A DNA stretch of 64,000 nucleotides from Catajapyx aquilonaris (taxonomy: Eukaryota), in the NCBI GenBank assembly GCA_000934665.2, contig KZ538377.1:1-64000 (forward strand), read 5' to 3'. The notes under the pieces are model-generated. The model saw only the letters and a list, made by a program, of their open reading frames with translations, searched no databases and was not told the DNA's origin. The position numbers and the translations under genes are program-made. Positions 578 through 54,072 of this stretch are shown piece by piece. Position 1 is the first letter of the stretch. Each line of letters starts with the position of its first letter.

Positions 578-2155
578 ACGTGATACGTGGACTCCCCACT
601 TTTTTGGTGTGTTGGATCATTCCCAAGTCTCCGGTTGCTGTATCCATCACTGATTCCTCCGCCTCCGGATTCTGCGGACTGCTTGTGCTCTCCATGCACG
701 TAGCCAGAAATGCAATTTGGATAACGTGTTTGAGGCGGTTTTAAACTTTGAGTTAAACCGCAGGGACCAGCTTTTAGGGAAGGTCTCCAGTGTGTTACAC
801 TGCAACATGGATTTCCCTTTTTTTGGAAGTGGGGGGAGAGGGAGGTGGGGGGGGGGGGGTCTATATGGACGTGTGGCTTTGGTGTTATTGAAACGAAAAG
901 CTTGCCGTCACGCCGAGAGAAAAGTTTGGTGTAGCTTGTGGGAAGGTTGGTTCAGATCAAAACAGGATTGAAATCAATTATACAGGGTGATACACTGCTC
1001 ATATCCACACTTCAAGAATAGGAGGCCATCAGAAAATCTGAGCCAGGCCTAGCTAGGCCTAGCTCCACGTGGTTCTGTCTACCAACAGCAACGATGCAAA
1101 GATAACGACACTATATAGCAATAGTTTATAATCCACATGAGTCAAACTGCATGGCATCGCATAATAGCCATAGTACTACGTACGTTGCCAATTAATTTAC
1201 ACGTCTGCATTGAAAATATTGGTGGTTCAATAATGCACCTCATTTGTTGTTAGATGAGTGTTGGTTGTGTATTTCTGGCTGGTGGATGCAATGTCGCGTG
1301 TGAGTGATTCAGCAAATGTGATTAATAATCAAGCGCGCTATTTATTAATAGATTCCCCTCACCATTATGGTCCAATCACGAAGCCGGCCGCGTTTCACAT
1401 TAGAGATTCACGCCGCAAATTTCAATTGGTGGAGGGCGAAGTAAAGACAAACCATTAAGCTAGGAATGGGAGCTAGGTTGGGCTGGTATGGGAGGGGGTT
1501 TCTGGTTGGGTTTGACACGCGGGCCTCGGTATCGAATCTCGTAATGACCCAACTTCCTCCATCCAGAGACCCCCGGTTTTAAGTGCTTTATTGAGCCGGC
1601 GTACACTTAATTACTCTGCGGCTTTATGTGTAGAAGAACCCCCTCCTCCGCTGCTTTGCATGAATTCTGCTTCGATTGGGGGTAATTCCCCTACATGGAA
1701 TTTTCCCATAAATCTCTCCATTCAAGTGGTCAGCGGCGCTCCCCAAATGATTTTTGGGGGACCGTTTATTTTAACTCATTAATTGTTGCAAAATACTGAT
1801 ATAGTGGCTCAGTGATACACTGCTCAATATATATTCAGATAATTATGCGCTTATGGAAGCAATTTTAGTTTTGACGTTTAATCGATCTGACTCGTATACT
1901 GTGTATTTGTGCAGGTTTCATTAAAATTTAACGAGTGGAATCGGTGCAAGTTCTCTTTCATCCCCCAAATGCAGATGTTTAATTTAAAAGGAATGGGGCT
2001 GTCCAATCACAGATTCTGGTCCCTAAACTTTCTAATTGCCGCGCGAAAATATTAACGAAGTCCCACGATTTTGCTTACTAGACCCGATTTTCAAAGGTGA
2101 CATTTTTGAGCATGTTTTCTGATTGAATCATTTTTTTTCTCTCTCTCCATTTCAG

Positions 2156-2368
2156 AACCATGTGAGAGAACATTTTGCGCCTTCGGGGCCGTGTGCGCCA
2201 CAGACGAACGCGGTCGCGCGTCCTGTCGCTGTCCAGAGTGCCGGTTGCCCCTGGCCTTTGCCCCTGTGTGCGGCTCGGACGGCGTCACCTACGACCACGA
2301 ATGTCGCCTGCGAATGAAAGGCTGCCAGACGCAACGAGTCATCCGCATCCAACACTCCGGCGAGTGCG
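2156..2368 (+). CDS. agrn: Agrin-like protein, internal exon encoding one follistatin/Kazal domain (EPCERTFCAFGAVC...PVCGSDGVTYDHECRLRMKGC...HSGEC)
   Basis: Polypyrimidine tract plus ttcag| at 2154-2155, G|GTAAGT donor at 2369. 213 nt, phase 1-1. Ten Cys in follistatin spacing and the Kazal PVCGSDG.TY...C motif. Confidence 0.9.
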
Positions 2369-5300
2369 GTAAGTCCAGTTTGTCAAACAATGGTTGCGAG
2401 CCGTTTTCTCCCTTGAAGCGATCCCATCAAAACACTAAGAACACTATAATTTTTGGTTATAAACTGTCTCAATATGATGAAATGTGAGGAAATACTTGGC
2501 GGACCGTTGGCGGAGGGATATTTATCGAAGTTGTGTGTGTGTGATCCGCAGATCCCGACGCACGTCCCCGCGCGCATCTTCGCGAGCGTCATGGCGGTGC
2601 CTCCAGCCTGTTGGAGTAGCGAACGAGAGGCAGCTGGCAAAATCGGCGACCCAATGTCTTTTCGCGTTCCTTCCTGGGGCTTTTATGGGCTAATCCCCCC
2701 CAAGAAAAGGGAAATACTGGAACGGGTTAGGAGTTGTAGGGAAGGGGGTATAGGGTTGGAAAAGGGGGGAATAATCCTGGGGCTTCTATTGCTTTTCCTA
2801 ATTGGTGGCCTGAGCTAGACAAGAGTAGCGATGCTGACACTCTAATTTTAGAGAGCGTGGGGGTGGGAGGAAACTAACCTGAGCTGCTTCAGGCGCTTTT
2901 AAGGACTGGTCTGAATCGGTGAATGGGAAAGGGGTGGCAGGCAGATGAAGGTGGGATGGGCGCAAGGGGGGGAACAATTACACGAATTCACTTTGCCAGC
3001 TCAACTCAGGGTAGGAAAAACCGCGAAGAAGAAGCTTTGGCTAGGAAGAAAAATGACCGTACTTTACAGGTGTCAAAGGCTCTTATCTCTCTATCGTAAG
3101 CAGGTGCAATTATGGCGACGGATGTTCGAGCCAAGTTTTGGGACGCGCAATTTTGGCAGAAACACTTTCGTTTTAAATCATACAAGTGCCTAATATTGAA
3201 CAAGCTGCGGGACAACAAACAGCGTTGGTTCCATCAGGGTCGCGTTTTGCTAGTGATGAAAAATCCTGTCGGGGGCACATGGTAATCTGGTTTATTTTCT
3301 AATCACAAATGTTTTCCGGCTAACCAGATGACAAAGCTATCAACTGACGCGGCCAGCCCTATGTTGTTTTAGCCAAATACTTTTTGTTACACGGCAGTGT
3401 TACTATTGGATGAATATTGAAATCTGAATTTTCTGATTAGTTGCTTTAAGGCCCACATTTCTCTGCCGGGCACATTGCGGATAAAATTTGGAAAGTGTCG
3501 CATAATCATACCTTTGCGATTTTAATATTGACTGTAACTTGGGCGTAGAACTCATCAGTGCTACATGTTTCAATTATTACGTGTCGTTACGACATGTTCT
3601 GCAATAGACATGCCAATTCTTTTGTACACATGACGTGATGTGACTCTAATGAAACATCTGTGTTTCCTGTCACGTACCAACTGGGTTCATTGCGAAATGC
3701 GGTTCGGTACCATAAAATACACTGGCAATGTGTGACTTGTACCCCCCTAATTATATCTCGAAACGTGCGTCAGACGCTCTAACCAGCCCCGGTCCTGGCG
3801 ATAACCTTGCTTTTTGTGGCTATACAGCTTGCTTTCTAACCTCTATCGAATACTAAAATCGACGAGGCGCACTAATCCTGTAAACATTTAATGTTGTGTG
3901 GGCTACACAGCATCAGAGAGAGTAGAGCGGGCTGTGCAACCTTTTATTCCGCTGACTCTCCCCACGTTGCATAATTCCATCCACGAACTTTCCTAGCTAC
4001 TCTTAACTAATGCGCAGAGGCTGCTGTGCGATGTCGATTTACACTAGTTGAGAGGATAGGAATGCTAAACAAGCACTTAACCCGCAACTGGGAATTAAAA
4101 CTGCTTTCTTAACGGCGTCATATTTCAAAGCTTCCTCACTAAGATGGTGGAACATCCTATTTCCTTTTTTTTCTCTCTTCCTCTCTTGGAAATTCTCCGC
4201 CTAACTGCAGCCACAGTTAGGCGATAAGGCAAGCTTGAAGGTGCTGTCCTGCTGGAGAAATGTGCCTGTACTCTGTCGCAGCTGTGGCGTGCATAAATAA
4301 AAGGATGACTTATTCCACTTTAATGTATCCCAAATAAACAAGTTCCACCCTGTATGTCTGACATATGGCTGTAAGTATATATAAGAAGGACGCAAAACCA
4401 CAGGTGTGCTTTTCTCCAGGTATTGATTTTCATCAGCACAGCGGGGATATAACGAGGTATCGATAAGCGTGATGCATTGTGTCCTCATCTTGAAACCCCA
4501 TCGCCCGATAAACATTCCATTATTGACGACGGAGCCAGATTATGTGATGAGCTGCTTGTCAGGCTAAGTATTACTACAGAAATCGGTTCCGAAAATGGGT
4601 GCACCCTGGAGGATACGCGGGGTCCTACCGGCTTGTGATGAATGAAAGCCGTTTTTTTTGGAAGTATAGGGCAATTTGCAAGGACCGGAGGTATAGTGTT
4701 TCATATTTGAATAATGGATATTGCTTCCATAGATAGTGCGCAGAGACGCTGAATGAACTCCGTACAACCTAGGCACGTGGTAGAAAGGCTCGTTATTGTG
4801 CAGGAAAATAGTCCTGGTTACTGCAGTGCCCAACATCTTAAAATTCCAAGTCACACACATGTTGTATTATTTCTAAGGCTCCTGCGGCTCCTTAGACACT
4901 GTGACTTCACCAGCAGGCTGCTGCAGTCTGACTTGACGATTTTGAGTTTAGCATACGAAATGTACTCGCGGGATACATTTGAACTGAGATTCTGGTACAG
5001 TTAACATCCTGGAGAGATGGAGAAAAAAAAATCTTGTAATTAGGGTAACGATATCGTTTAAAATTGGGATGTCTTGGTGTGCAAGACAAGGAGTCGTTTT
5101 CGTCTGTGTTTCCTTCCCATGTCTGCTTTATTTCTCCCCCCATCTTTCCTTCGCTTTCCATCTCTTTTCTAATGGAAACAGAAAGGTTATTACGTATGAG
5201 GAAGACGGTTGCGTCGTCGAAATTGCCGTCTTTGGTTCATTTAAGCCGAAAGCGTCGTCTGCGAGGAACAGTTAAGTGGATAACACAAGAGTGCCTCTGC

Positions 5301-6767
5301 CGCTTCCTCCTACCTTGCCCCTTGCAATTACTATTAACGCTTAACGAACATGATGCTCCAATTAGCTTAACTGAAAGGTACGGAACACTCACATCGATAG
5401 TTGTGCTCGGCTCTAATATACTGCGCCGGGTACTTCAATCATGTCTTATCAAGGCTGCCTTTATGCCCTGTCTTGTTCAGTACATTGGCCAAGGAGAATG
5501 AACAGAGTTCGGGATAGGTTCATTAATATCACACAGGTCTGTGGAATATTTTATCCCTGGCAATATCTACATCCGCATGGGACGGAAAATGTCCATATAA
5601 TCATTGTGTCTTTCATATATGTCACTACGAGGAAATAATGTAACTTCCTGCACACGATTTTATTACAGTACTTTCACGTAAAGGACATGCGACAAGCACA
5701 ATCACACACAGAAAAATTCCCTCAATGAGTACAGTACGCTCTCAGCGTAGAATATTTTCCTGCATCATAATATTTTAGCTGCTGAAATGCTGCAGCTGCT
5801 GTAAAATATTAATGTTGTTTATAGTAAAATAGAGGCAGCAACCAGCAGTGCGGAAAGCACAATAATGACAAGCGTCACGACTGTTGATTTAGATGGTTCC
5901 ATCAGCACTCTCTGCCATCAACACCTTTTCGCAGTGGCCTCCCTGTCAAGGGGTGACAAAGAACATCATTCACAATGTATGAACAATGTATTTTCATTTA
6001 ATGCGGACTGTGTACGGAAGCACAGTTGGGGCAATGGAATGGCATGCTGCCTTACTAAAATGCTGTTGCGATTGTTGCATGCGTGTAACTAAACCAGTAA
6101 AATGAAGCACTGCCACTACAATATATTTTTATATTATTTTTACTGGTTATCACAACATTATATGGAAATGTGCTGCCACAAAATCAAAGAGCTAGAATGA
6201 ACTCGTGCGAGATTTCCCCTTGAATTCATGCAACCGATTTTAAATCGTAGAAATGCCCCACTGTGTAAACTGCACAGTGTGCAGTTATAATAATATTATT
6301 CTAAATTAATATTAATAATGTTCAATTAATCGGACATATAGTGATTGAAATACCAGTAGTGTATATCTGAAAGTCATATTACAACGTCATTTTGTGTTTG
6401 AATTATTCTACGTAGAGTATTTCAGATTAAACCATCAGTGTGCACCAATACATTATAATGGCCAAAATATTAATTTAATATTCGTATTGTTACTGCAGCA
6501 TGGTAGAGACAAAACTATTCTTTTTTCTTCTTCAGTTAGTCACTTCAAAAATATTACGACTATAATATACCCACATTTATTAGACCCTAGGCTATAGTTG
6601 GAGTATTAACTACTATATTCAATGTAGGTATTTTTTAATTAATTCAGAACATCCCAGCTTTGGAGAGATGATAGCTGAAATACTGTACTACTTGCACTCT
6701 AAGCCATCGATATAAGTTTATATAAAATTGGGAGAGTTATACAAAAATATACCTACTGCAGCCTTAC

Positions 6768-6879
6768 CTGAAACTCTTTGATAGCCTTTTGCAAGTCTTC
6801 CTGATATACTTCTGATGTTTCACGGGAAGCTTCTGTACCAATTTTGTCCATAAGGCACTCCATCTCCAATTGAAGCGCT
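6768..6879 (-). pseudogene. Relic exon, module 2b (RALQLEMECLMDKIGTEASRETSEVYQEDLQKAIKEFQ)
   Basis: tttttttcctctgaag| acceptor, CAG|GTAAGG donor. 112 nt, phase 2-0, open, in frame with module 2a. Confidence 0.75.
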
Positions 6880-6983
6880 CTTCAGAGGAAAAAAATAGGC
6901 ATTAATGCATAAAGGTTTCTGTTGTGGCGTAAAGTGTCCATCAGTACTCGATTACATAAAATGAACGTTTTCTCTGAACTTAC

Positions 6984-7116
6984 CGGCACAAAGTAAGAGG
7001 ATCAATCCTGTAATCGTGATGGTGTAGTATTCCAGTAGGAGTATCAATAACTGGCACGGTCTGTGCGCAAATGCGATCATCAGTAAGCCTAATATTTGCT
7101 TGGGCGGCTACTTCAG
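6984..7116 (-). pseudogene. Relic exon, module 2a (EVAAQANIRLTDDRICAQTVPVIDTPTGILHHHDYRIDPLTLC)
   Basis: ctcttcttattattccacgcag| acceptor, CCG|GTAAGT donor. 133 nt, phase 1-2, the only open frame of the three. Confidence 0.75.
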
Positions 7117-8510
7117 CTGCGTGGAATAATAAGAAGAGTAAATATTTAAATTAAAAATTAACATGTGGCCATAATGATCTGTTCACTCTGAGCAGTGACA
7201 CTAATTCACCATCTCGAGTAGATGTGATGTAGTACACGGAGCAGAACAAGGAAAATATCTTGCAAGATTCAAATCTGTCGGAAGGTTTAAAAAGATGCGC
7301 ACTTACTTTCCTCTGACTTATCTTGCTCTGACGTTGAAAATTATTGATAAATTATTTCGTGTCACAGTTCAGACATGAACAATTTATGGCTAAATACCTT
7401 CAATTATTCGTTTCTGATATAGTTACCTGCAAAGAAAAAATACAAGTAGAGCGTCATGTCTCTCTTGATTCAGGATTACTCGACGCACTGTCCGGATATT
7501 AAACCTTTCTTCTATGAGAATCCGAAGTGGAAAGAGCCTTATATATACTGTACATTGCCTAATTAAAATATTGCCATTATTTTATGATATGGGCATTTCC
7601 CTCACGCAACAAAATTTGATAAACGTTCAGTCAACTTTTATATCTTTGAATTGTATCATCCGCACTATATCTCTAAACGGATGTGACCAAAGCAGTTGCC
7701 TCTGACTCATTAAAAACCAATTCAGTTAAAGTGTTGAATTAATTTTATTGGAGCTGCGGAGGGCAAGAATTAAACAAATAATAATTAGGCAGGATAGCCA
7801 AGTATTGCGCAACGGACATGAATGAAACAGCGATATCTTATCGCGAGACTGACGCCCACTATTACACTACATCCTGAATGTATGAATGAAAAAAGTGGGC
7901 GTGTATGCTGTCACGTACACTGTTCTCGATTCCTATACGCCGATCGTTTTCTTGAATGTAATGTGCCAAAGTACATTTAGTAAGGAAACCAATTAAAGTA
8001 TAACTTATATGCAGACTGAAGTCACAGCCGACATAATGTGACTATAACACACCACGTTAATAATATTGAAAGAGATTAGTACAATGCAGATCTTTTGGGA
8101 TGCATCATGTCATAAGAGTACAGAGGTCGACAGAGGTGCACTGTACATGGTCGAACCATTTTGTTACGACAACTTGCCGTGTTTATTATTTGTGTTGCAT
8201 TGTTGTTCTACAGTAGAAGCTGTAACATAATAATAATTTTCAGTGTGCGCACACGACAGGTTTAATTTCATTATATTTCCATGCGTGAAGAAAGAGCTTC
8301 TAGAAAACATGCAGCCTCTGTAATGGTATAATTTTGTCGCAGCATATGCGTAGTCAGTAGTCGTATATTTCGTAGCAAGCCTCTATCTGCAACAAAATAA
8401 AACACATTCAATTATTTTTGCAGATCTATTCGTTTGACTCGACTGCTGCACACTATCAAATTATGGAAGTCTACTGTACAGTATGTGGTAGTGATGGTTT
8501 ACGGGTTTAC

Positions 8511-8622
8511 CTCATACTGAGTAGTAAGATCGTCCAAATGGCGTTGATTATTTTCAGCATCTTCTTCAAACTGCGCATTTCCCAACTTGTAAAGCAAGCA
8601 TTCCATCTTGTATTTAAAATAT
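8511..8622 (-). pseudogene. Relic exon, module 1b (QYFKYKMECLLYKLGNAQFEEDAENNQRHLDDLTTQYE)
   Basis: gtattgcag| acceptor, GAG|GTAAAC donor. 112 nt, phase 2-0, open, in frame with module 1a. Confidence 0.75.
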
Positions 8623-8717
8623 CTGCAATACATTAGAATGAACAAGTGGAGTGACATTGCTTGCAATATTAGTTGTATAGGGAATAGTGGATTATAATAA
8701 TCAATGCATATCCTCAC

Positions 8718-8832
8718 TGGCATAAGATGTCGCGTGGAATAACTTGATCACTGCGGTATTTGTCAACTATGGATTGTGCCCACATGCATATTCGAGGTTC
8801 CACATTGTTTTCTTCAGTCAAAATCACAGTCC
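8718..8832 (-). pseudogene. Relic exon, module 1a (TVILTEENNVEPRICMWAQSIVDKYRSDQVIPRDILC)
   Basis: cattattatag| acceptor, CA|GTGAGG donor. 115 nt, phase 1-2, open. Confidence 0.7.
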
Positions 8833-9296
8833 CTATAATAATGAGCAACAATAATACACCAATGAATATCTCATCTTGATTGTTTTCAAGGACAATCGTG
8901 GTATAGGGACAATATTGAATGAATAATATTTCTGATGCGTCAGTTCACATTCATCGTAATAAGATCGATTTTATATTGCATAGAACATAATTATCAGCAA
9001 TTTCATCCTTTCCTGCAACAATCAGAAGCAATAAATGACATGATATCTTGACCATTATAACTTGCGAGGTTCTCTTCAAAGCAGCGCAGCGCATGAAGTA
9101 GGACACTCTTTCGCAGCAAAGTATTGCCGATTTGTGACAGTAGCTTCCGCCATATGCTCCAAATATAACTTTTATCAAATGTAATACATCATCCGCCTGA
9201 CTGGATCAACAACACACATTTTACTCCAAGGTTGTGTACGAGGATCTGAACAAAAACATGCTGAATGCCACTCAGTAAACATGATATGTGGCTTAC

Positions 9297-9409
9297 TCCT
9301 GCCCAGAAGCGATACGTTCTCACAATGGCATGTCACCAACATGTCACTATACTGCAGAAGGATAATATGCGCACAAGTAACTCTCCCAAAACATTACGCA
9401 ATATTTTAA
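9297..9409 (-). pseudogene. Relic exon with F-box-like motif (KILRNVLGELLVRILSF / frameshift / LQYSDMLVTCHCENVSLLGR)
   Basis: ctcgtctcttacag| acceptor, GGA|GTAAGC donor. A 51-nt intron leads to an exon starting NPRTQPWSKMC, which resembles the W..lC tail after F-boxes. One frameshift is required. Confidence 0.5.
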
Positions 9410-10667
9410 CTGTAAGAGACGAGGCTACATACTGTTACGTTATGAAATTAATATTTGGGGAAGCATTATGCATGTTGCTAAATGCATATTTTAAGTAACT
9501 GTAATTGTGTAATTTGACTATACAGTATTTACTCCGTACATGCCGCATAATAACTTGAACTGTAATATGCAGTACGGAATGTTATTATCGAAAGCATGCA
9601 GCATATATTAGAACATTAGTTGCGTAGTTGCCTTGGTATATAAACCCCATTTTCCCTAAAAATAACAACACCTTTTAATGACCCCCACGTTAATACACCA
9701 AGCAAAGCCGTACAGCTAATGTTACATTACGTAGTGCAGTGCCTTTTTTTATCCGCCAAAAATACCGCTCCCTTGAGATTCCATATATGTTGCAGCCTAG
9801 TTTAATGTAGCATTTGGCCGTGGATGAAATTAGTTCGTGAAGCCTAGTTTGTCGAGCGATCGTGATGGATCATTAACGTACACTAAGTGCGGACGACGGT
9901 TAAATCTACTTCTGTTTTTCCGCCGCATTACTCTTTATTGGTAACCGATCACATCCAGACGCACATAACGAGTCCCCTGTCGAGCTCTCCTCTCTAGTAA
10001 AAAAAAGCAGTGCTCAAAAACACGTAATAACTGATATTTCACTCGGGATGCAGAGACATTGGACACCTCTCTGGTTTCATCCTCTCTCATCCCCCAATTT
10101 CCAACCTGTTCCAACCCTACACACATAATCCGGAGGATCAGCCATCCGAAATTTGCTTTTGAGAGTCAGCTGGGATTTTCCGGTTTCAATGACGTGTGGC
10201 AGCGCACGCCATTAATCGAACTCTGGGGGGAAAGGGTGGGAATGAATTGTACGGATATGTGGGGGGGTATTGTTGGGAAAAAGGGGGTGGTGGTTCATAA
10301 GCTGGGGTTGACACGGTGACAGCCCCCCCCCCCCTTTCGTCATGGAGGGGGTTCCTTACCCCCACTAGTTTCCAGGGAAACAGAAGAGAAAATTGTGCAG
10401 GTCGACTGACACCGGGAGCAAAGGTTTTCCCACTCTGGCCGTCGATAAATCCTCCGCAGGATGAAGCCTGGAAATGAGAGGATTCTCCGGGGGTCTCCCC
10501 CCCCCCCTCCACCTTCCCCAACGTTTCCGGATCTGGGAAAACGCGTCGCTTCGCTTAGCAAAGTACACTGGTCTCAAGTACATCGGTGATAGTTGAGGGA
10601 GGGTTTAGACGAGAGATCCGTGCAGCTGACACATGCAACACTTAGACGGGTGTAGCCTACTACAGTT

Positions 10668-10892
10668 ACAGTTACCCACATCATAACTTCTCAAAAAGTA
10701 GGCGGCGACCTCTGCCTCTCCAGACACCATAAGCGATCTGATTGGTGTACCAGAGGGTGCTCCCCCAATCAGAAATGTGGCTACAGTGAGATCCATAAGA
10801 AATCCTCCTTTAAAGTGTATTGCTTGACAACATAGGCCGCAATATTTAGGACATGCCTATTTCTTTTGAGAAGATAGGCTGTGGGTAGTGTA
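10668..10892. mobile_element. MITE-like element, family A, short copy
   Basis: Imperfect ~31-bp TIRs (tacccacatcataacttctcaaaaagtaggc / gcctatttcttttgagaagataggctgtgggta) with TA-CAGT-like termini. Clearly homologous to 32336-32796. Confidence 0.75.
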
Positions 10893-13800
10893 ATAGTGTA
10901 TGCCTCATCAGGTCAATATTCCTGCCACGAAATAAAGCTAAGAAATCTTGATAACGCGAACCCCGTATCGATGATGCCAGCATCCAGCGCATTCCGAGAT
11001 GGAGGAGAAATCGGGAGCCATCTTGCAAACTATTCCCAGAATTCCTCCTTCCTTCCACCCTTCCTAATGACTTGTTAATTGCTTAATGGTTCGTGCGGTA
11101 CTTGCATACCAAACGAAACAGGCCAGAACGAAGAGCTGAGAGAAGTGTATTTATTTTTTGCACACTTTTTTTTTTAAAGCAAAACCGTTTTCGAGGGAGG
11201 CTACTAGGGTTTTGCTCTATTTTCCAACAGCAACATGGATGCATCTCGACGACAGTTCTCATTCCCTGGATGGTGGCGGCCTCATTTTTCTTGCTCTGGG
11301 CTGCGTTAGGATTTCCGACGTGATGACTCTGCTGATACTAGTAGGCTCTATTTATCTAAATCGGACCCCGGCTCAACTCGTGAGTCTCGAGGCCTGATAA
11401 GATCCGGGAAACCAGCTGCGTTGTGAATCTGGGGGGGAAAAGGAAAAGGAGGAAGAGGAGAAAGTACAGGAAAAAAAACGTGATATTGAATTAGGTGCCA
11501 GGAGAGCGGGGCGGATGTATTTATGTCCATTAGCGGCACGTAACAGCCTGGTAGTTGAAAGGGTTATCTGGAATGATGTTAAATTTTTCAACTTATGCAT
11601 TTAGTTCGGCGAAAAGTAGTTTGAGAAAATGGGAGCAGCAAGATGGGGATTACGATACGCAATGTTTTGTGCGAAAAAATTTAAAGAGCGATATTTTGTG
11701 ATGATCCGACCATGTAACATAAAACCGCACATATACTCCACATACTTGCATATAACAACAGCCGGCTTATTTTTTATTGCACTGAAGGTTCATGATAAGC
11801 GGTAGAGTAAGATCATAATAAGGCAACACTTAACAGTTATCCCCATATCCCCATAAAGCTATACTAATTTTGGTATGCAAATTTTTAAGCGCAAATAATA
11901 ATGAAACCCAGTAGTTATTCTCAACTTTTGTGGGCCGTATTGTACAATGTACAGCATGTGCGCGCATGATTTGGAGTGCGTATGGTGGGTGTTAAACTAA
12001 ATCTGCTTTGTGATAGCACTTTTCAAGGCGTTATATGTGATGCAGGCTTGGTAGGAAGAGAAAGGAGAACTAAACCAGCTTGCATTATTTTTTTTAGGAA
12101 AGCAGGTTTAATTTCTCTATGTAGGCAAGACATGTAGGTCATCCCTGAATCTATTATGCTAATATCACATGAACAATGTTTCCATTCATTGCGGTAGGAA
12201 AATATGCTGATAAACATTGGTTCTAATGCCTGCTGTGAGAATAGTCAATAATTTGAGCAGTGGCCCGCATTACAGTATTTACGTGGGGTGTGCAGTACGG
12301 TGCACAGTTCAATATTCTGGCAATGAAGTGGCATATTTTCCAATAAAATTATACCTCCACTACAACATGCCTGGATTATTATGCGAGCCCGTAGCGTATA
12401 TCCAATGGTAAACAATTTTTAAGGTGCTTGAAACCGTGATTTAACTGTAGCCCGCGCCTATCTACAGCTTCCCAATTCGGTATTCAGAGGAACATATTCC
12501 AGCAAAAAAAGCGAAGGAATATGACGCATCCCCTTGGGTACAACCGGGAAGAAAATTCCTGGGCTAAGAAACAGAAGGCAAAAAGGGAAAGAAATCCTGG
12601 GGGTAGTGGTATCCAGTATAGTGTTAGGAGGCAGCAGCTTCGGCACTTCCTCCCGGCCCCAGGGCAACAGGCTTCCCGCATTACACAGCGGCAGGCAAGT
12701 CTCTCCGGAGTTTCTACCGGTTTCCTAGGGAAAAGCCCGTAGGATCCCCGGCTAGACATGGAGAATCCNCTCCAGCCCCCCCCCCCCCATCATCCACCCT
12801 TTCACTTGGAAACTAAAGCCCGTTGCCTCCCAACTCCCCTGGCCTAATGCGCACTTTGTCCCGAGGACCGCTGTGGAAGTCGCAGATATCTAAGTCAAGT
12901 CCTACTGATGTACCTCAAGAGGCTTTGCCTTCTCGTCTCTTTACGGGGTTGTCACAAAACTGTGCTATTCCCTGATAGTCTAACGGATTAGACTAATTGG
13001 AGGGTGCGGAAAATGATGATGTGATCTATACACATATGCAATATAAGCATGTCGCCTTTTGTGAGTGACACGGGTTCATTTTAGAAAGCGAATGGCGCCA
13101 GGAAAATTGTGTTAGGTCTCTGCTCTCATATTATGAATGACGTGTTTTCTGACTCTGCGGAATGGATTTTGAACGTCACTCAGCGGTAAAGATTGGCATG
13201 TGTGTCAATTTTCATGCATTACGTTCAAACTTGTGGAAGACACATTACTCTAGAGGCTTTTCATTGTTGACGACTTGCGCATATACCTGTAAATTGATCC
13301 GGTTTACACTGGAGCAGTCGCCGCCTTGTTCGTACTTTGCGCTTGAATACATACTTCCGGATATATCAGTTTACTGCAACCTACGTTGAACAACAAGCGT
13401 ATCGGATTGCTCCTCTTTGTGCAACTATGGCTTTCAGACGCTCAACTAGTGTTGTGCAAATTATGTATACCTATAGAGGCCCCATTACAATATTCGTCTA
13501 TCTCGACCTAGCTGGTACTTGGTGAAAGTGCAGGCCGCAGAGAAACATAAGTGATATGAAGAGGAATAATTGATTCACTTGACAGGCGCTCCATTGAAGT
13601 CATGTTTGGCACGTTTGGAGAGAAACTAGATCCATTTTCATTAGGTTGCACTGGAAGCAAATCTGTCTCGTGCACTTAACTTGCTTTCCAATAATAGTCT
13701 AGCAGGACTAGAGTTGGCGTATCCTATAACCCTTTAATTTGCGACTTGTTTAGAGTAGCGAGTTAATCCTGGAGATTTGCGCCAAAATGGATTAGGGAAG

Positions 13801-39640: not shown

Positions 39641-39877
39641 ACATACCGGACCCTTGCGAGCACAAGCAGTGTCCGTACGGAGCCCGATGCGTTCCTTCGC
39701 TGGACGGACGAAGCGCCTCCTGCGAGTGTCCCGCCTCCTGTCCCGACTACGGAGACAGCGAGGAGGCGCAGCCAGTCTGCGGAAGTGACGCTAAGGACTA
39801 CCGGAACCAATGCGACATGAGGAAGGCCGCCTGCCAGCACAACAGGGTCATCACGGTCAAGTTTGTCGGGAAATGCG
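39641..39877 (+). CDS. agrn: Agrin-like exon, follistatin/Kazal domain (DIPDPCEHKQCPYGARC...PVCGSDAKDYRNQCDMRKAAC...FVGKC)
   Basis: ttcccgtcag| acceptor at 39639-39640 joins the 2368 exon in frame (G|AC = Asp). G|GTAAGT donor at 39878. 237 nt, 10 Cys. Confidence 0.9.
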
Positions 39878-42800
39878 GTAAGTCACTTATTTTTTGGCCT
39901 ATTAAAAAAAAACTAGGTGCAGATGCAGGTGGCGTATGTTGCATGACGGAGGTGTAGCGTGAAGAATTACAAGTGTCCGCTGCAAAAATAGTTTTTTTTC
40001 CCCCACAGCGCATAATGCAGCTGGAGTAACTTCTCTCATGGAATTGATTATTCTCGGTGCAGTGTTTCATCCGGATTCGGATTAGTTTCTATGACCTCCC
40101 AGGCACTGCACTGCAAGCATTTCTACAAAAAAATACCTACAGTGCTCAAGCAGCATATTGCAGCTCTGTTGTGATCAAAATGTTGGTGGTAGTCCCCCCA
40201 GATGATCCAGCTTATTTGAAGTGATGCTTCACCAGCATGCTTTGGATGGTTGGCTCTAGAACAACACGATACGGTTTTGAATACTCGACTCCAATCAGTC
40301 CTGCCCGCATCTGAATCGGATAACCCAACCGGTATTCATCTCCAAGTGATGGCAGCATCAAATGCACAAAGCGTGGTAAATCTCACAATCAATTTCACCG
40401 GGCCAAATTTGAAGCTTCAGGCCTTTTCCCCTGCCATGAAAGGCCCTCCACAAATTTGTTGCACTAACGAGCCATTAGCGACGAAGATTAGCAAATTCAT
40501 TTCGCCAGCTATGAATTCTTAGTGTACACCTGCGTAGCCATGACGCTTTTTTTTCTCTAACACATGCATTGTTTCATAAGCGATATCAGGAGCGCCCTTA
40601 TAACTCGGAGCATAAAAGGCGCTTGCAACATGGAAAAAAAGATAGTGGAACTGCCCCCCTCCCCCCTAATTAAGGCTTATAATAGTGGCGTTATCTCAAA
40701 CGACTATTAAAACAGGGCGTCAGGCGGGTGAATGGGAGCGAACGTGTTGCTTTTATACCTCGACGGAAATCGGAACGATGGACATTGACAGTGTTTCATG
40801 GGGGGATATACGGGCAGACCCCGGATGGGTGCGCTCCATTTGTTGTTAGGAGGGGTCGACTCATGTATTACCATTATTGCGGCTGGCCTTCCGCACAACT
40901 AACGCGATATTAAAAAAGCGGTGATGTCAATAGGCCTTTTCTGGACCGCCAACACTACAGAATAATTGTGACACGCTGCGTGAAGAACTTCCGAATTTTC
41001 AGAATTAATAAAGGCGCCGCATACGAACAACTGAAGCATGATTGTGCTTCAAAATTAGCCTAACTCTGTGATTTTGTTAGCCTTTATTAATCTGCCAAAC
41101 TAGTAGCGAACCCGTTGCCAAATTTCGGCAACACTGGTTGCCCCCCCCCCCCCAACTTGGATGCAGTACGATAGGCCACTGCCAGATGGCGTGTTGGCTC
41201 TCCCTCACACACCACTGCCACTTTCAGAGAGAAAGCACGTTGGTGATGAGTCACCATGGTGTCCTCTAATAAGCCTAACTGTTGAAAGAGGAAAGTGAAA
41301 GCTATGGTAATTAGTTTGAATCTGCAGAGTTGTACAGTACTGTCGAGCAGTCATAACGTGTTTACGTGGTGGAATCACGGATTGCGAATTCTGTATGTGA
41401 TGTGCAGATTACACACCGTACACTCTACACAGTTATAAATATATTGCTAAATTACCACTGATGAAATGGTCTATCTCTAAATGTAGCAGCAATAATCTAC
41501 AGTTCCTGTTATGTTTTTTTTAAAAGCGTGGGCTTAATCTGCATGGACCAAAATATGTAAAGCTAAGCTGGGCTCCCCCATACAACATCGTTACATTCAT
41601 AATCCTCGCTGCAGGAATATTCATGCATTGTGGTCCAAAAATAATGGGCTTATTTGTAACAACTGAGGGACAATTCAGGCTGGGGGGTTCCTGGCCCGGA
41701 ACACACAGGGGGGAATGATGGGGGGGGGGCACAATAATCAAATAGAAACACTCTCACAATTTCACCACTTGCAATTCGGAATCCTGGAGAAAAATATTGG
41801 ATTATGCCACGGACTAATCCACCTAAATCGAATTGCGGGGAGGGCACCTCTCCTTTTTTTTGGGGACCCGAAGTTCTATAAACGGGGTTAAAATTGATTT
41901 CCCCCGACCCAAACTTTCCGTCTCTCTGATGACGTAGAGTTGGCTCCATATTGCTAGGTTTTGAATGTTATTCCAGCCTGCAAAGCCAAGCCCAGCCAAC
42001 ACACAAAAAAAGGAGTAGAGAAAGGCTGTTGCCCCTTGTTGAGTACGGCAATAATTGCTGACAATGGAAAAGGATGGCGGGAAAGCATTAGGGGGGGAAC
42101 TCAACGATATTCATATCATTTGTTGCCAATTTATGCGCGCAACGAGACGGAAATAAAGCTGGGGGTAAAAGGGGAAAGGACCATGGCTGCCAACTCGAGA
42201 TCGTCTGTCTTTTATTCCTCCTTTCCCTCCGAGTTCCCGGAGGCCATCACCGAGGATTATATGTCCCGGTAGTAAAATCCAGAATTCATTTTCTTTGCCA
42301 AGAAGAACTCGCTTGCTCTGCGTGTAGTGAGTCGAATGATTTTTAGACCTTTTATCCCGGAATAGTTTTCCGACTAGGAAAAGTGGGGGTTTTACGAGAT
42401 ACCGGTTCTTTGAGCACCAGGTAGAAGACTTGACGAAAAAGGTGGAATTCTACTTTTTGCAGACGTTTCGTAATATCGAGGGCATGTTGGGCCTGCAGCT
42501 CTGAATCAACCTGAAGCTTACCCTTTAAAAAAAGCAATTCTTGTTACACTGGCTGTGTCAGCTGCAATCCGAAACTTTGAGAGAAGCTGCAGGCCCACAA
42601 AATAACTTAGTAGTTACAACACACACGGCCGGTACTTTAGGCTATATACAGGGTCGCCTTTGTAACATAAATAGTGTGTAACTTGATCACCCAACCATCA
42701 CACGCACTGGAAAAATCGCTCTCTAATTACCACGAGTGAATAATTCCCTTTGTTTGTCCCAAGCCTTAATCGTAGTCCAGAAGTAGCTTCGTTGGTCCTT

Positions 42801-51793: not shown

Positions 51794-51821
51794 NNNNNNN
51801 NNNNNNNNNNNNNNNNNNNNN
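51794..51821. other. Assembly gap (28 N)
   Basis: Run of N. Confidence 0.99.
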
Positions 51822-53307: not shown

Positions 53308-53523
53308 ATCCGTGCGAAGAAGTGACGTGCCCGGAATACCAGGTGTGCCAGCTAGATGAAGAAAGGAGACCTTTGTGTCGGTGCCACGAGCTCTGCTCCC
53401 TGGAATTCCAACCCGTTTGCGGATCAGACGGGAAAACATACGCCAACGAGTGCACCATGAAGCAAGAGGCCTGCAGGCTCAGGAGGAACTTGAGGATCAT
53501 CTACAGGGGGAAATGCAGCTCAG
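53308..53523 (+). CDS. agrn: Agrin-like exon, follistatin/Kazal domain (DPCEEVTCPEYQVC...PVCGSDGKTYANECTMKQEAC...RGKCSS)
   Basis: Branch-point-like ctactaat at about 53271, tatgcag| acceptor, CAG|GTCAGT donor at 53524. 216 nt, phase 1-1, 10 Cys. Confidence 0.93.
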
Positions 53524-53856: not shown

Positions 53857-54072
53857 GTGTGAATCCATGCGAGAATGTCCAGTGCAACGAGAACCAAGAG
53901 TGCGAGATCAACCGGTATGGTATTGCTCAGTGCAAATGTCCGGACGACTGCGAACATGTCATGAGGCCAGTCTGCGCATCAGATGGACTCACGTACGACA
54001 ACATATGCGAAATGCGAAAAGCTGGCTGCCAGCAAGAGAAGAAGATAGCTTTGGTGTACGCAGGCACTTGTG
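53857..54072 (+). CDS. agrn: Agrin-like exon, follistatin/Kazal domain (GVNPCENVQCNENQEC...PVCASDGLTYDNICEMRKAGC...YAGTC)
   Basis: ttttgtgtttgcccag| acceptor, G|GTGAGT donor at 54073. 216 nt, phase 1-1. Follows a 333-nt intron. Confidence 0.93.

Follow-up and report, generated by a model that had tools for sequence, protein, structure and literature searches.

Open exon pairs within an agrin intron

The host gene of this locus is agrin, whose follistatin/Kazal exons are found on the plus strand near 2220-2370 and 39730-39880, with agrin (PDB identifier 8s9p_A) as their best match among solved structures. These two exon sites bracket an intron of about 37 kb in the window, by which we mean the whole 64-kb stretch of DNA that was analysed. 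Four open exons, referred to here as A and E (X-type) and B and F (Y-type), all lie on the minus strand of this single intron (6768-8832) and are hence nested in the host gene. Exon A (8718-8832; 115 nt) comprises two leading nucleotides, 37 codons (TVILTEENNVEPRICMWAQSIVDKYRSDQVIPRDILC) and two trailing nucleotides, with an acceptor of 3.6 bits and a donor of 2.5 bits, these and all other splice-site scores being based on generic metazoan frequencies and not on an organism-specific model. It is followed by an intron of 95 nt (8623-8717) and by exon B (8511-8622; 112 nt), which has one leading nucleotide and 37 codons (YFKYKMECLLYKLGNAQFEEDAENNQRHLDDLTTQYE), ends in phase 0, and is flanked by an acceptor of 2.3 bits and a donor of 2.1 bits. 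Exon E (6984-7116; 133 nt) comprises two leading nucleotides, 43 codons (EVAAQANIRLTDDRICAQTVPVIDTPTGILHHHDYRIDPLTLC) and two trailing nucleotides (acceptor 3.1 bits, donor 6.8 bits), and is joined across an intron of 104 nt (6880-6983) to exon F (6768-6879; 112 nt), with one leading nucleotide, 37 codons (ALQLEMECLMDKIGTEASRETSEVYQEDLQKAIKEFQ) and a phase 0 end (acceptor 5.2 bits, donor 7.8 bits). Both introns are of the GT..AG type and split a codon, CA/A (Q) between A and B and CG/A (R) between E and F. Exon A has a single open frame, while in B and F a second frame is open too.

The original prediction had described a decayed antisense gene running over 4201-9548, with four fully open exons and short retained introns. 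When both splice sites are required to score at least 2 bits, exactly A, B, E and F are recovered as open exons on the minus strand from 9548 to 4201, the predicted junctions 8718/8622 and 6984/6879 are present with their AG and GT sites, and a multi-exon coding sequence antisense to agrin that retains introns of 95 and 104 nt is borne out. An independent contig built from DNA runs of the species is identical to the window over 2000-10705, with no differing letters, though its reads are possibly shared with the assembly; the exon frames are therefore not assembly slips.

The setting of these exons is less distinctive than had been proposed. The AT-rich block of 5 kb holds for about 6001-9000 (GC 0.35-0.37) but not for 4001-6000 (GC 0.44 and 0.42); most other bins of the window have a GC of 0.40-0.50, and some other kb bins equal 6001-9000 in AT-richness. 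Likewise, regularly spaced splice sites are present, but the minus strand of 4201-9548, with 22 acceptors and 13 donors per 5.35 kb, barely exceeds the density of the window's minus strand as a whole (218 acceptors and 106 donors per 64 kb). A MITE-like high-copy element (depth about 610) adjoins the region at 10673-10887.

Site densities so close to the window average would suit an explanation by chance, with splice-like sites and open frames as accidents of an AT-rich intron, as would the loss of most of the proposed exon chain described below. Against this stands the pairing of the exons. A search for open exons of 90-200 nt with good splice sites, separated by introns of 40-400 nt, found only A-B and E-F as phase-compatible pairs on both strands of the 64-kb window (128 kb), and when the region was shuffled 500 times with its dinucleotide composition preserved, not even a single such pair arose, as against two in the real sequence. 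Of 44 tiles cut from the real window, pairs occur in only three, each of which overlaps the region.

Coding signature and probable duplication of the two-exon block

The codon-position composition of the four exons taken together is biased (chi-square 30.2, p=3.6e-5), a value not attained in either of two controls of 2000 sets each, random introns in the one and four open intronic frames in the other, which argues against chance. Taken singly, the bias is seen in B (p=0.005) and E (p=0.006) and is lacking in A (p=0.56). In the four exons the bases rank G>A>C>T at the first codon position and A>T>C>G at the second, as is usual for coding sequence. Their third positions are T-rich like the nearby intron, whereas the host exons are C-rich at position 3, and this fits a gene that is weakly expressed, young or drifting.

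Exons B and F are homologous. They are of equal length and have the same phases, their local alignment score of 48 compares with 20.1 +/- 4.1 for shuffled sequences (none of 2000 reaching it), and they are reciprocal best matches within the window (tblastn E-values of 0.05 and 0.06; tblastx E-value of 0.006). The similarity, again at odds with an accidental origin, is in register with the exon boundaries: ungapped identity is 54/112 nt in the exons and 43/120 and 41/120 in the flanks. Exons A and E agree in phase and differ in length (115 and 133 nt), and their likeness is marginal, with a score of 25 against 18.7 +/- 3.8 that 144 of 2000 shuffles attained. For the spliced peptides of A-B and E-F the score is 69 against 24.2 +/- 4.5, with none of 2000 shuffles reaching this value. 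At the DNA level blastn found no likeness between A-B and E-F, and HMMs of both exon types revealed no further X- or Y-type copies in the window. The blocks are thus adjacent, of the same phase, near-equal in length and similar, as expected of duplicated exons, with the similarity of A and E being marginal.

Between the blocks, synonymous sites are saturated and non-synonymous sites are conserved. By Nei-Gojobori counting, B and F give a pS of 0.75 and a pN of 0.47, and the corresponding values are 0.81 and 0.48 over all 72 aligned codons. In the other two frames of B and F the pN/pS ratios are 1.0 and 1.43, so that pN is lower than pS in the proposed frame only, another observation that chance does not predict. 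These sequence features suggest that the four exons belong to an unannotated coding locus without known relatives. We regard chance as an extremely improbable explanation of the locus, and for exons B, E and F it is refuted by the shuffle, codon-position, B/F homology and pN/pS tests.

Exons C and D and the ends of the gene

Two stop-bearing segments, C and D, had been proposed as decayed exons of the same gene. Their quoted peptides (8386-8255 and 7426-7307) are reproduced letter for letter from the minus strand, but their place in the gene is not upheld. Exon C (8255-8386) has an acceptor of 6.6 bits, a donor of -2.6 bits and two in-frame stops; when B is read on into C at phase 0, a stop follows after 10 codons (8386-8354), and C could consequently be a short last coding exon. 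Exon D (7307-7426) has good sites (9.6 and 4.3 bits) and is closed in all three frames. As there are eight exon-like site pairs as strong as those of D on the minus strand of the window, D may be due to chance. Phase compatibility of adjacent exons, claimed for the whole chain, holds for A-B and E-F and fails from C to D as quoted, because C ends in phase 0 and D was read with two leading nucleotides. None of 12 comparisons of C and D with A, B, E and F is significant, and C and D share no sequence with each other. Their 5 stops in 84 codons match the background of the region (0.052 per codon) and set them apart from the four open exons, whose 154 codons contain none (Fisher p=0.005). No open exon with good sites was found on the minus strand from 6768 down to 4201, so most of the chain claimed over 4201-9548 is unsupported. 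The preferred reading leaves C, D and all of the chain below 6768 outside the coding sequence. A gene decaying uniformly across A-F would not produce such a split in stops.

These observations bear on the possibility that the exons are a relic, either of a longer modular gene or of a formerly coding gene that is now at most a spliced non-coding RNA, with its linking exons and ends decayed and A, B, E and F surviving as the portions that stops have yet to reach. The phase 0 end of B cannot be joined to the two leading nucleotides of E, the only two connecting exons (8382-8253 and 7327-7210) are weak and look non-coding, and C and D carry stops in spite of usable acceptors, all of which would be expected of such a relic, as would the intron-like third positions and the failure to find a database relative. 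Uniform decay, on the other hand, is at variance with the distribution of stops: 154 random codons of the same position-specific composition would stay open with a calculated probability of only about 0.002, and the stops of C and D are at background density in segments that share nothing with the open exons. Moreover, non-synonymous divergence is well under the saturated synonymous divergence, and no parent gene is known. We consider a relic a tentative alternative.

A convincing start or end of the gene was likewise not found, as a relic would predict, and no compelling complete gene model emerged, the start candidates having weak donors or being translated polypyrimidine tracts. A weak candidate upstream exon at 9297-9351 (minus strand; ATG at 9342, acceptor 4.4 bits, donor 0.7 bits) ends with one trailing nucleotide, which is what both A and E require; it is one of four ATG-to-GT candidates upstream of A and hence no better than chance. 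For the second block, a weak candidate first exon at 7427-7457 (minus strand) would start with the ATG at 7457 and supply 10 codons and one nucleotide before a GT of 4.5 bits. Its donor coincides with the acceptor of exon D, and its hydrophobic peptide is a translated polypyrimidine tract. Downstream, a weak AATAAA on the minus strand at 8182-8187, 324 nt from exon B, might serve a first small gene as its polyadenylation signal, a match that says little since the window contains 103 AATAAA where 86 +/- 10 would be expected; a second weak, putative signal lies at 6576-6581 (minus strand), 187 nt downstream of exon F.

Relatives, origin and arrangement of the locus

The original prediction recognised no full-length family in these exons, and database searches agree, within the limits of exon-length queries: Pfam, PDB and protein-library searches gave no true match. 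A word-indexed protein library of longer proteins, searched with E, F and B, returned no matches. A profile of the X exon against 1.84 billion representative proteins returned two, both translated satellite-like repeats and not homologues; with queries of 37-45 residues, such a search would catch close relatives only. None of the exons matched Pfam at curated cut-offs, the best scores among the approximately 200 ORFs scanned being Cyclin_N for exon A (E-value 0.18; 11.9 bits against a cut-off of 23) and SidC_lipid-bd for the ORF of exon F (E-value 0.0011; 19.3 against 27). No match for the exons was found in the PDB and no related cluster in the protein atlas. A resemblance to POZ/Skp1-Elongin C would be no more than a speculative lead. 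Having no detectable relatives, the protein of the locus is treated as lineage-restricted. It thus resembles taxonomically restricted (orphan) genes in that no Pfam, PDB, atlas or protein-library relative was found, with the difference that exons of 37-45 residues are too short to establish orphan status.

The locus had been read as an unprocessed pseudogene. No intact paralogue or parent gene was found in the protein libraries with these short queries, or at a likeness of at least 80% in contigs of the DNA runs of the species, where no second copy of the region was found; across two DNA runs, extra contigs of at least 80% likeness over 4201-9548 are essentially zero, with four bins showing about two more over a depth of 30.8 (X1). 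The locus is similar to unprocessed pseudogenes in its retained introns, its lack of an annotated function and the absence of a complete ORF among those found. It differs in that neither a parent gene nor a disabling mutation in the homologous exons was found, stops being confined to segments that are not demonstrably in the gene. A pseudogene is thus not supported, though a recently inactivated gene is possible.

Arrival as transposon cargo had also been suggested, in which case the AT-rich block would be an ancient mobile element that brought exons of host origin into the intron. The local AT-richness of 6001-9000, the MITE-like neighbour, and an imperfect inverted repeat of 33 nt (76%) at 6448-6480 and 9441-9473, which flanks the exons, are in keeping with such a captured fragment. 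However, the repeat, the best in the region, is AT-rich and of a quality that often arises by chance, the region is at single-copy depth as opposed to about 610 for the MITE-like element, and scans of 80 minus-strand, 10 plus-strand and 117 window ORFs revealed no domain of a transposase, a reverse transcriptase or any other mobile-element protein. With no convincing termini and no extra copy of at least 80% likeness in the DNA runs, we deem transposon cargo very unlikely.

Our preferred reading is a coding locus antisense to agrin, perhaps still active, with ancient tandem two-exon blocks that were both kept coding, and we give it about an even chance. An X exon, an intron of about 100 nt and a Y exon would have been duplicated in tandem long ago, giving rise to A-B (8832-8511) and E-F (7116-6768), both plausibly retained as coding since the duplication. 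The blocks, of 227 nt (A-B) and 245 nt (E-F), are each 2 mod 3 in length; because two nucleotides complete the entry codon and the exit is in phase 0, they cannot be read serially in one frame. They may be mutually exclusive, flanked by an upstream exon with a 1-nt end and a downstream exon that both share; alternatively, each may be the core of its own small gene of about 100 codons, the two genes being tandem paralogues. A fuller version, in which a living, taxonomically restricted locus after the first follistatin domain of agrin encodes a three-cysteine module of about 75-81 residues that is without relatives in present protein libraries, in two ancient copies used as mutually exclusive cassettes or as tandem genes, is possible but doubtful.

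Exons duplicated in tandem and spliced in a mutually exclusive manner are a known arrangement. The blocks resemble it in being adjacent same-strand copies with the same phases and old protein-level similarity, in the identical length of B and F and the difference of 18 nt, a multiple of 3, between A and E, and in a block length of 2 mod 3, so that inclusion of both would break the frame. Unlike in that arrangement, the unit is two exons and an intron, not a single exon, and the copies are 1.4 kb apart; alternative use of the two blocks would be a conjecture from these features. Protein-coding genes nested within introns often lie on the strand opposite to the host. Such genes have been described as typically short and young and as located within long introns (PMC5174743, PMC3814207). 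The locus is similar to nested opposite-strand genes in its position within one intron of about 37 kb, its short introns and its small predicted product, and differs in that no complete ORF was found. No nested gene in agrin came up in the literature searched, PMC3927609 having no bearing on it.

Codon-position and pN/pS tests on internal duplicates can tell real exons from look-alikes without a transcriptome or relatives. Whether the locus is alive or dead, the greater part of the 5.3-kb exon chain first proposed is spurious, and if dead, the locus is an ordinary relic. If active, it would add one or two unannotated small proteins to this genome and be a clean case of a nested gene, antisense to its host, in which a two-exon cassette has been duplicated, and its transcription could interfere with the expression of agrin.

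Exons antisense to agrin

Kazal/follistatin domains are present in plus-strand ORFs near 2220-2370, 39730-39880, 53380-53520 and 53930-54070, and the best solved-structure match of these ORFs is agrin (8s9p_A; the first ORF aligns to residues 170-244 and the third to 466-535). The antisense exons described here therefore sit in an agrin intron of ~37 kb, on the opposite strand, as the original prediction had placed them. Third codon positions are C-rich in the host follistatin/Kazal exons (89/190 C, 18 T) and T-rich in the four antisense exons (54/154 T, 29 C). Scanning the window against Rfam and for tRNAs returned no match. The window contains an assembly gap of 28 Ns (51794-51821) and single Ns at 12769, 33062, 58577 and 63992.

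A minus-strand multi-exon relic with four fully open exons had been proposed at 4201-9548. We recovered all four on the minus strand, each with both splice sites scoring at least 2 bits on generic metazoan frequencies that are not specific to this organism: exon A (8832-8718, 115 nt), exon B (8622-8511, 112 nt), exon E (7116-6984, 133 nt) and exon F (6879-6768, 112 nt). The junctions 8718/8622 and 6984/6879 and the peptides quoted earlier were reproduced exactly, and no open exon with good sites was found on the minus strand of 6768-4201. When both strands of the 64-kb window were searched for open, phase-compatible exon pairs (exons of 90-200 nt, introns of 40-400 nt), A|B and E|F were the only ones. 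Not one of 500 dinucleotide shuffles of 9548-4201, the control that the original prediction had named, yielded even a single pair, and among 44 tiles cut from the real sequence of the window, pairs occurred in three, all of them overlapping this region. The description of the locus as an AT-rich 5-kb block holds for 6001-9000 (GC 0.35-0.37) but not for the remainder of the block. Likewise, the sites of A, B, E and F are good, but the overall density of minus-strand sites does not set the region apart, being about that of the window itself (22 acceptor and 13 donor sites within 5.35 kb versus 218 and 106 within 64 kb).

Two copies of a two-exon block

The four exons form two blocks, A-B and E-F, that resemble each other in architecture. 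Exons A and E (X-type) each have two leading nucleotides that complete a codon and two trailing nucleotides, exons B and F (Y-type) each have one leading nucleotide, a phase-0 end and a length of exactly 112 nt, and the introns inside the blocks measure 95 nt (A-B) and 104 nt (E-F). B and F are reciprocal best non-self matches within the window (tblastn E-values of 0.05 and 0.06; tblastx 0.006), with a local score of 48 versus 20.1 +/- 4.1 for shuffled sequences that none of 2000 shuffles reached. The likeness of A and E is marginal (25 versus 18.7 +/- 3.8, reached by 144 of 2000), and the two exons have in common a terminal L-C and, at nearly equal offset, an R-I-C triplet. Once spliced, the A-B and E-F peptides score 69 versus 24.2 +/- 4.5, a value reached by none of 2000 shuffles. 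At the DNA level blastn detected nothing between A-B and E-F, and ungapped nucleotide identity is 54/112 within B/F and drops to 43/120 and 41/120 in the flanks. Thus, the likeness is old and limited to the exons. A tblastx comparison of the two block neighbourhoods returned the B-F match only, and HMMs of the X and Y exons found no further copy in the six frames of the window.

Other segments offered no link to the two blocks. Only two candidates could connect B to E, 8382-8253 and 7327-7210; both are weak, the composition of 7327-7210 is not coding-like, and neither was retained. For other exon-like segments that the window carries on its minus strand, 21335-21184 and 10532-10360 among them, no relation was detected, and two more on this strand, 338-218 and 190-71, are spurious, being copies of a tandem repeat. 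This repeat occupies 1-522 (147-nt unit, 3.5 copies, 92% matches) and is the source of the two open segments. A low-complexity ORF of 122 codons lies on the minus strand at 10189-10554 and has no Pfam match.

Relatives, copy number and mobile elements

The exons belong to no recognisable family, in agreement with the earlier reading: exon-level queries found none in Pfam, the PDB, a protein atlas, protein libraries or a metagenome, though queries of 37-45 residues would miss all but close relatives. In Pfam, the single exons and 80 minus-strand ORFs gave nothing above the cut-off. Cyclin_N (E-value 0.18), SidC_lipid-bd (E-value 0.0011), DUF2496, Ezh2_MCSS and PG_binding_1 scored below it and were dismissed as chance among ~200 ORFs, and ten plus-strand ORFs gave UPAR_LY6_2 only (E-value 0.052). 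Searches of the PDB with A+E and B+F profiles, and with A and B singly, found no relative, the sole match being 15 residues of a subtilisin-like protease (E-value 1.7). The best protein-atlas match for E and B (0.80, a bacterial TelA cluster) was discounted, as it lies within the range of shuffled sequences, and word-indexed searches for longer proteins gave no match for E, the F ORF or part of B. When 1.84 billion representatives were searched exhaustively with the X-exon profile, two matches emerged, P0002 (498 aa) and P0003 (150 aa), which we rejected as summed chance, one stretch of 11-14 residues recurring three to seven times. Both are highly repetitive predicted proteins with a ~60-residue unit and look like translated satellite DNA. 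A metagenome scan with the Y profile produced 173 pattern matches, of which none was confirmed. A motif across the A/B junction may resemble small POZ-type (Skp1/Elongin C-like) proteins, an unsupported impression to which we give no weight.

The stretch 2000-10705 is matched without a differing letter by one contig of the species' DNA runs, and depth across 4201-9548 is flat and single-copy (30.8 and 20.6; four bins are up by ~2 in sequencing run X1), so the locus has neither a recent paralogue nor a repeat copy of at least 80% likeness. Mobile-element domains were not found in the 80 minus-strand ORFs, the 10 plus-strand ORFs or 117 ORFs elsewhere in the window, and the sole inverted repeat bracketing the exons is a 33-nt, 76% match in AT-rich DNA. 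On these three grounds the suggestion that the exons arrived as transposon cargo is unsupported, and we reject it.

Some neighbouring sequence does vary in copy number or between contigs. A MITE-like element of ~215 bp (10673-10887) has 24-nt terminal inverted repeats that are 88% complementary. Its summed contig depth is ~610 versus ~31 in the flanks in X1 and 408 versus ~21 in run X4, and dozens of contigs of 80-90% likeness terminate at its borders. The bin 10350-10683 has about twice the single-copy depth, and relative to the window the contigs of the runs have an additional C in each of the homopolymer runs at 10322 and 10496. At 3470-3626 a second short X4 contig with 11 differing letters and five gaps (its depth is 4.4, that of the matching contig 10) probably represents another haplotype or allele.

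Coding constraint, decay and arrangement

Read in frame, the four exons together show a codon-position composition bias (chi2 30.2, p=3.6e-5) that none of 2000 random intron-segment sets attained, nor any of 2000 sets made up of four open intronic frames. Bases rank G>A>C>T at the first codon position and A>T>C>G at the second, which is the usual coding pattern. Taken singly, B (p=0.005) and E (p=0.006) show the bias, and F (p=0.11) and A (p=0.56) do not. Divergence between the copies (Nei-Gojobori) has reached saturation at synonymous sites but not at non-synonymous ones: pS is 0.75 and pN 0.47 for B/F, aligned ungapped from the exon ends, and the two remaining frames of this pair give pN/pS of 1.0 and 1.43. 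For A/E, pS is 0.86 and pN 0.48 on a codon alignment guided by the protein alignment, which favours a pN below pS.

Two further minus-strand exons, C (8386-8255) and D (7426-7307), had been counted as decayed members of the exon chain, a claim that we do not uphold: none of 12 comparisons with A, B, E and F revealed any likeness, and stops are as dense in C and D (5 in 84 codons) as in the region at large (0.052 per codon). The 154 codons of the open exons contain no stop (Fisher p=0.005), and stops only in C and D are not the split expected from an evenly decaying gene. The donor of C is poor (-2.6 bits). The sites of D are very good (9.6 and 4.3 bits), and since the window has eight site pairs of this strength on its minus strand, this exon may be coincidental or non-coding.

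These observations bear on whether the locus is alive. Given open exons free of stops, stops concentrated in unrelated segments and pN well below pS, we lean, with middling confidence, towards a locus on which coding constraint acts or acted until recently. That the blocks are instead a relic, the remnant of a longer gene of repeated modules whose linking exons have decayed, is possible but doubtful: exon A is weak in both likeness and codon signal, and third positions resemble the surrounding intron rather than the C-rich third positions of the host, both of which speak against activity, whereas the distribution of stops and the low pN speak against a relic. Of the relic reading in the original prediction, intron-retaining antisense coding exons survive, and the inclusion of C and D and the transposon cargo do not.

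If the locus is coding, two arrangements could be envisaged. The blocks are 227 and 245 nt long, each 2 mod 3, and a splice from B to E would be out of frame. The blocks might thus be alternative cassettes between a shared upstream exon ending with one nucleotide, for which 9351-9297 on the minus strand (ATG at 9342) is a candidate, and a downstream exon. Alternatively, each might be the core of a small gene of its own, the two genes lying in tandem. The first gene would run from the ATG at 9342 to 9297, through A and B and then 10 codons that start at 8386 and lead to a stop at 8354 (AATAAA at 8187-8182), and the second from the ATG at 7457 to 7427, through E and F (AATAAA at 6581-6576). An AATAAA motif lies downstream of both blocks and is common in the window. 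As the start and end pieces of both arrangements are no better than chance, neither is preferred.

The closest known kinds are nested genes in long introns, mutually exclusive tandem exons, unprocessed pseudogenes and orphan genes. Tandem exon duplication with mutually exclusive use is a known kind of arrangement. Genes nested in long introns are described as common and typically short and young in two studies (PMC5174743, PMC3814207), and the literature searched yielded no description of an agrin-nested gene (PMC3927609 is unrelated). The original prediction is partly confirmed in what it observed and partly supported in how it was read, and we take the locus to be an unannotated antisense coding locus nested in the agrin gene of C. 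aquilonaris, with an old internal duplication.
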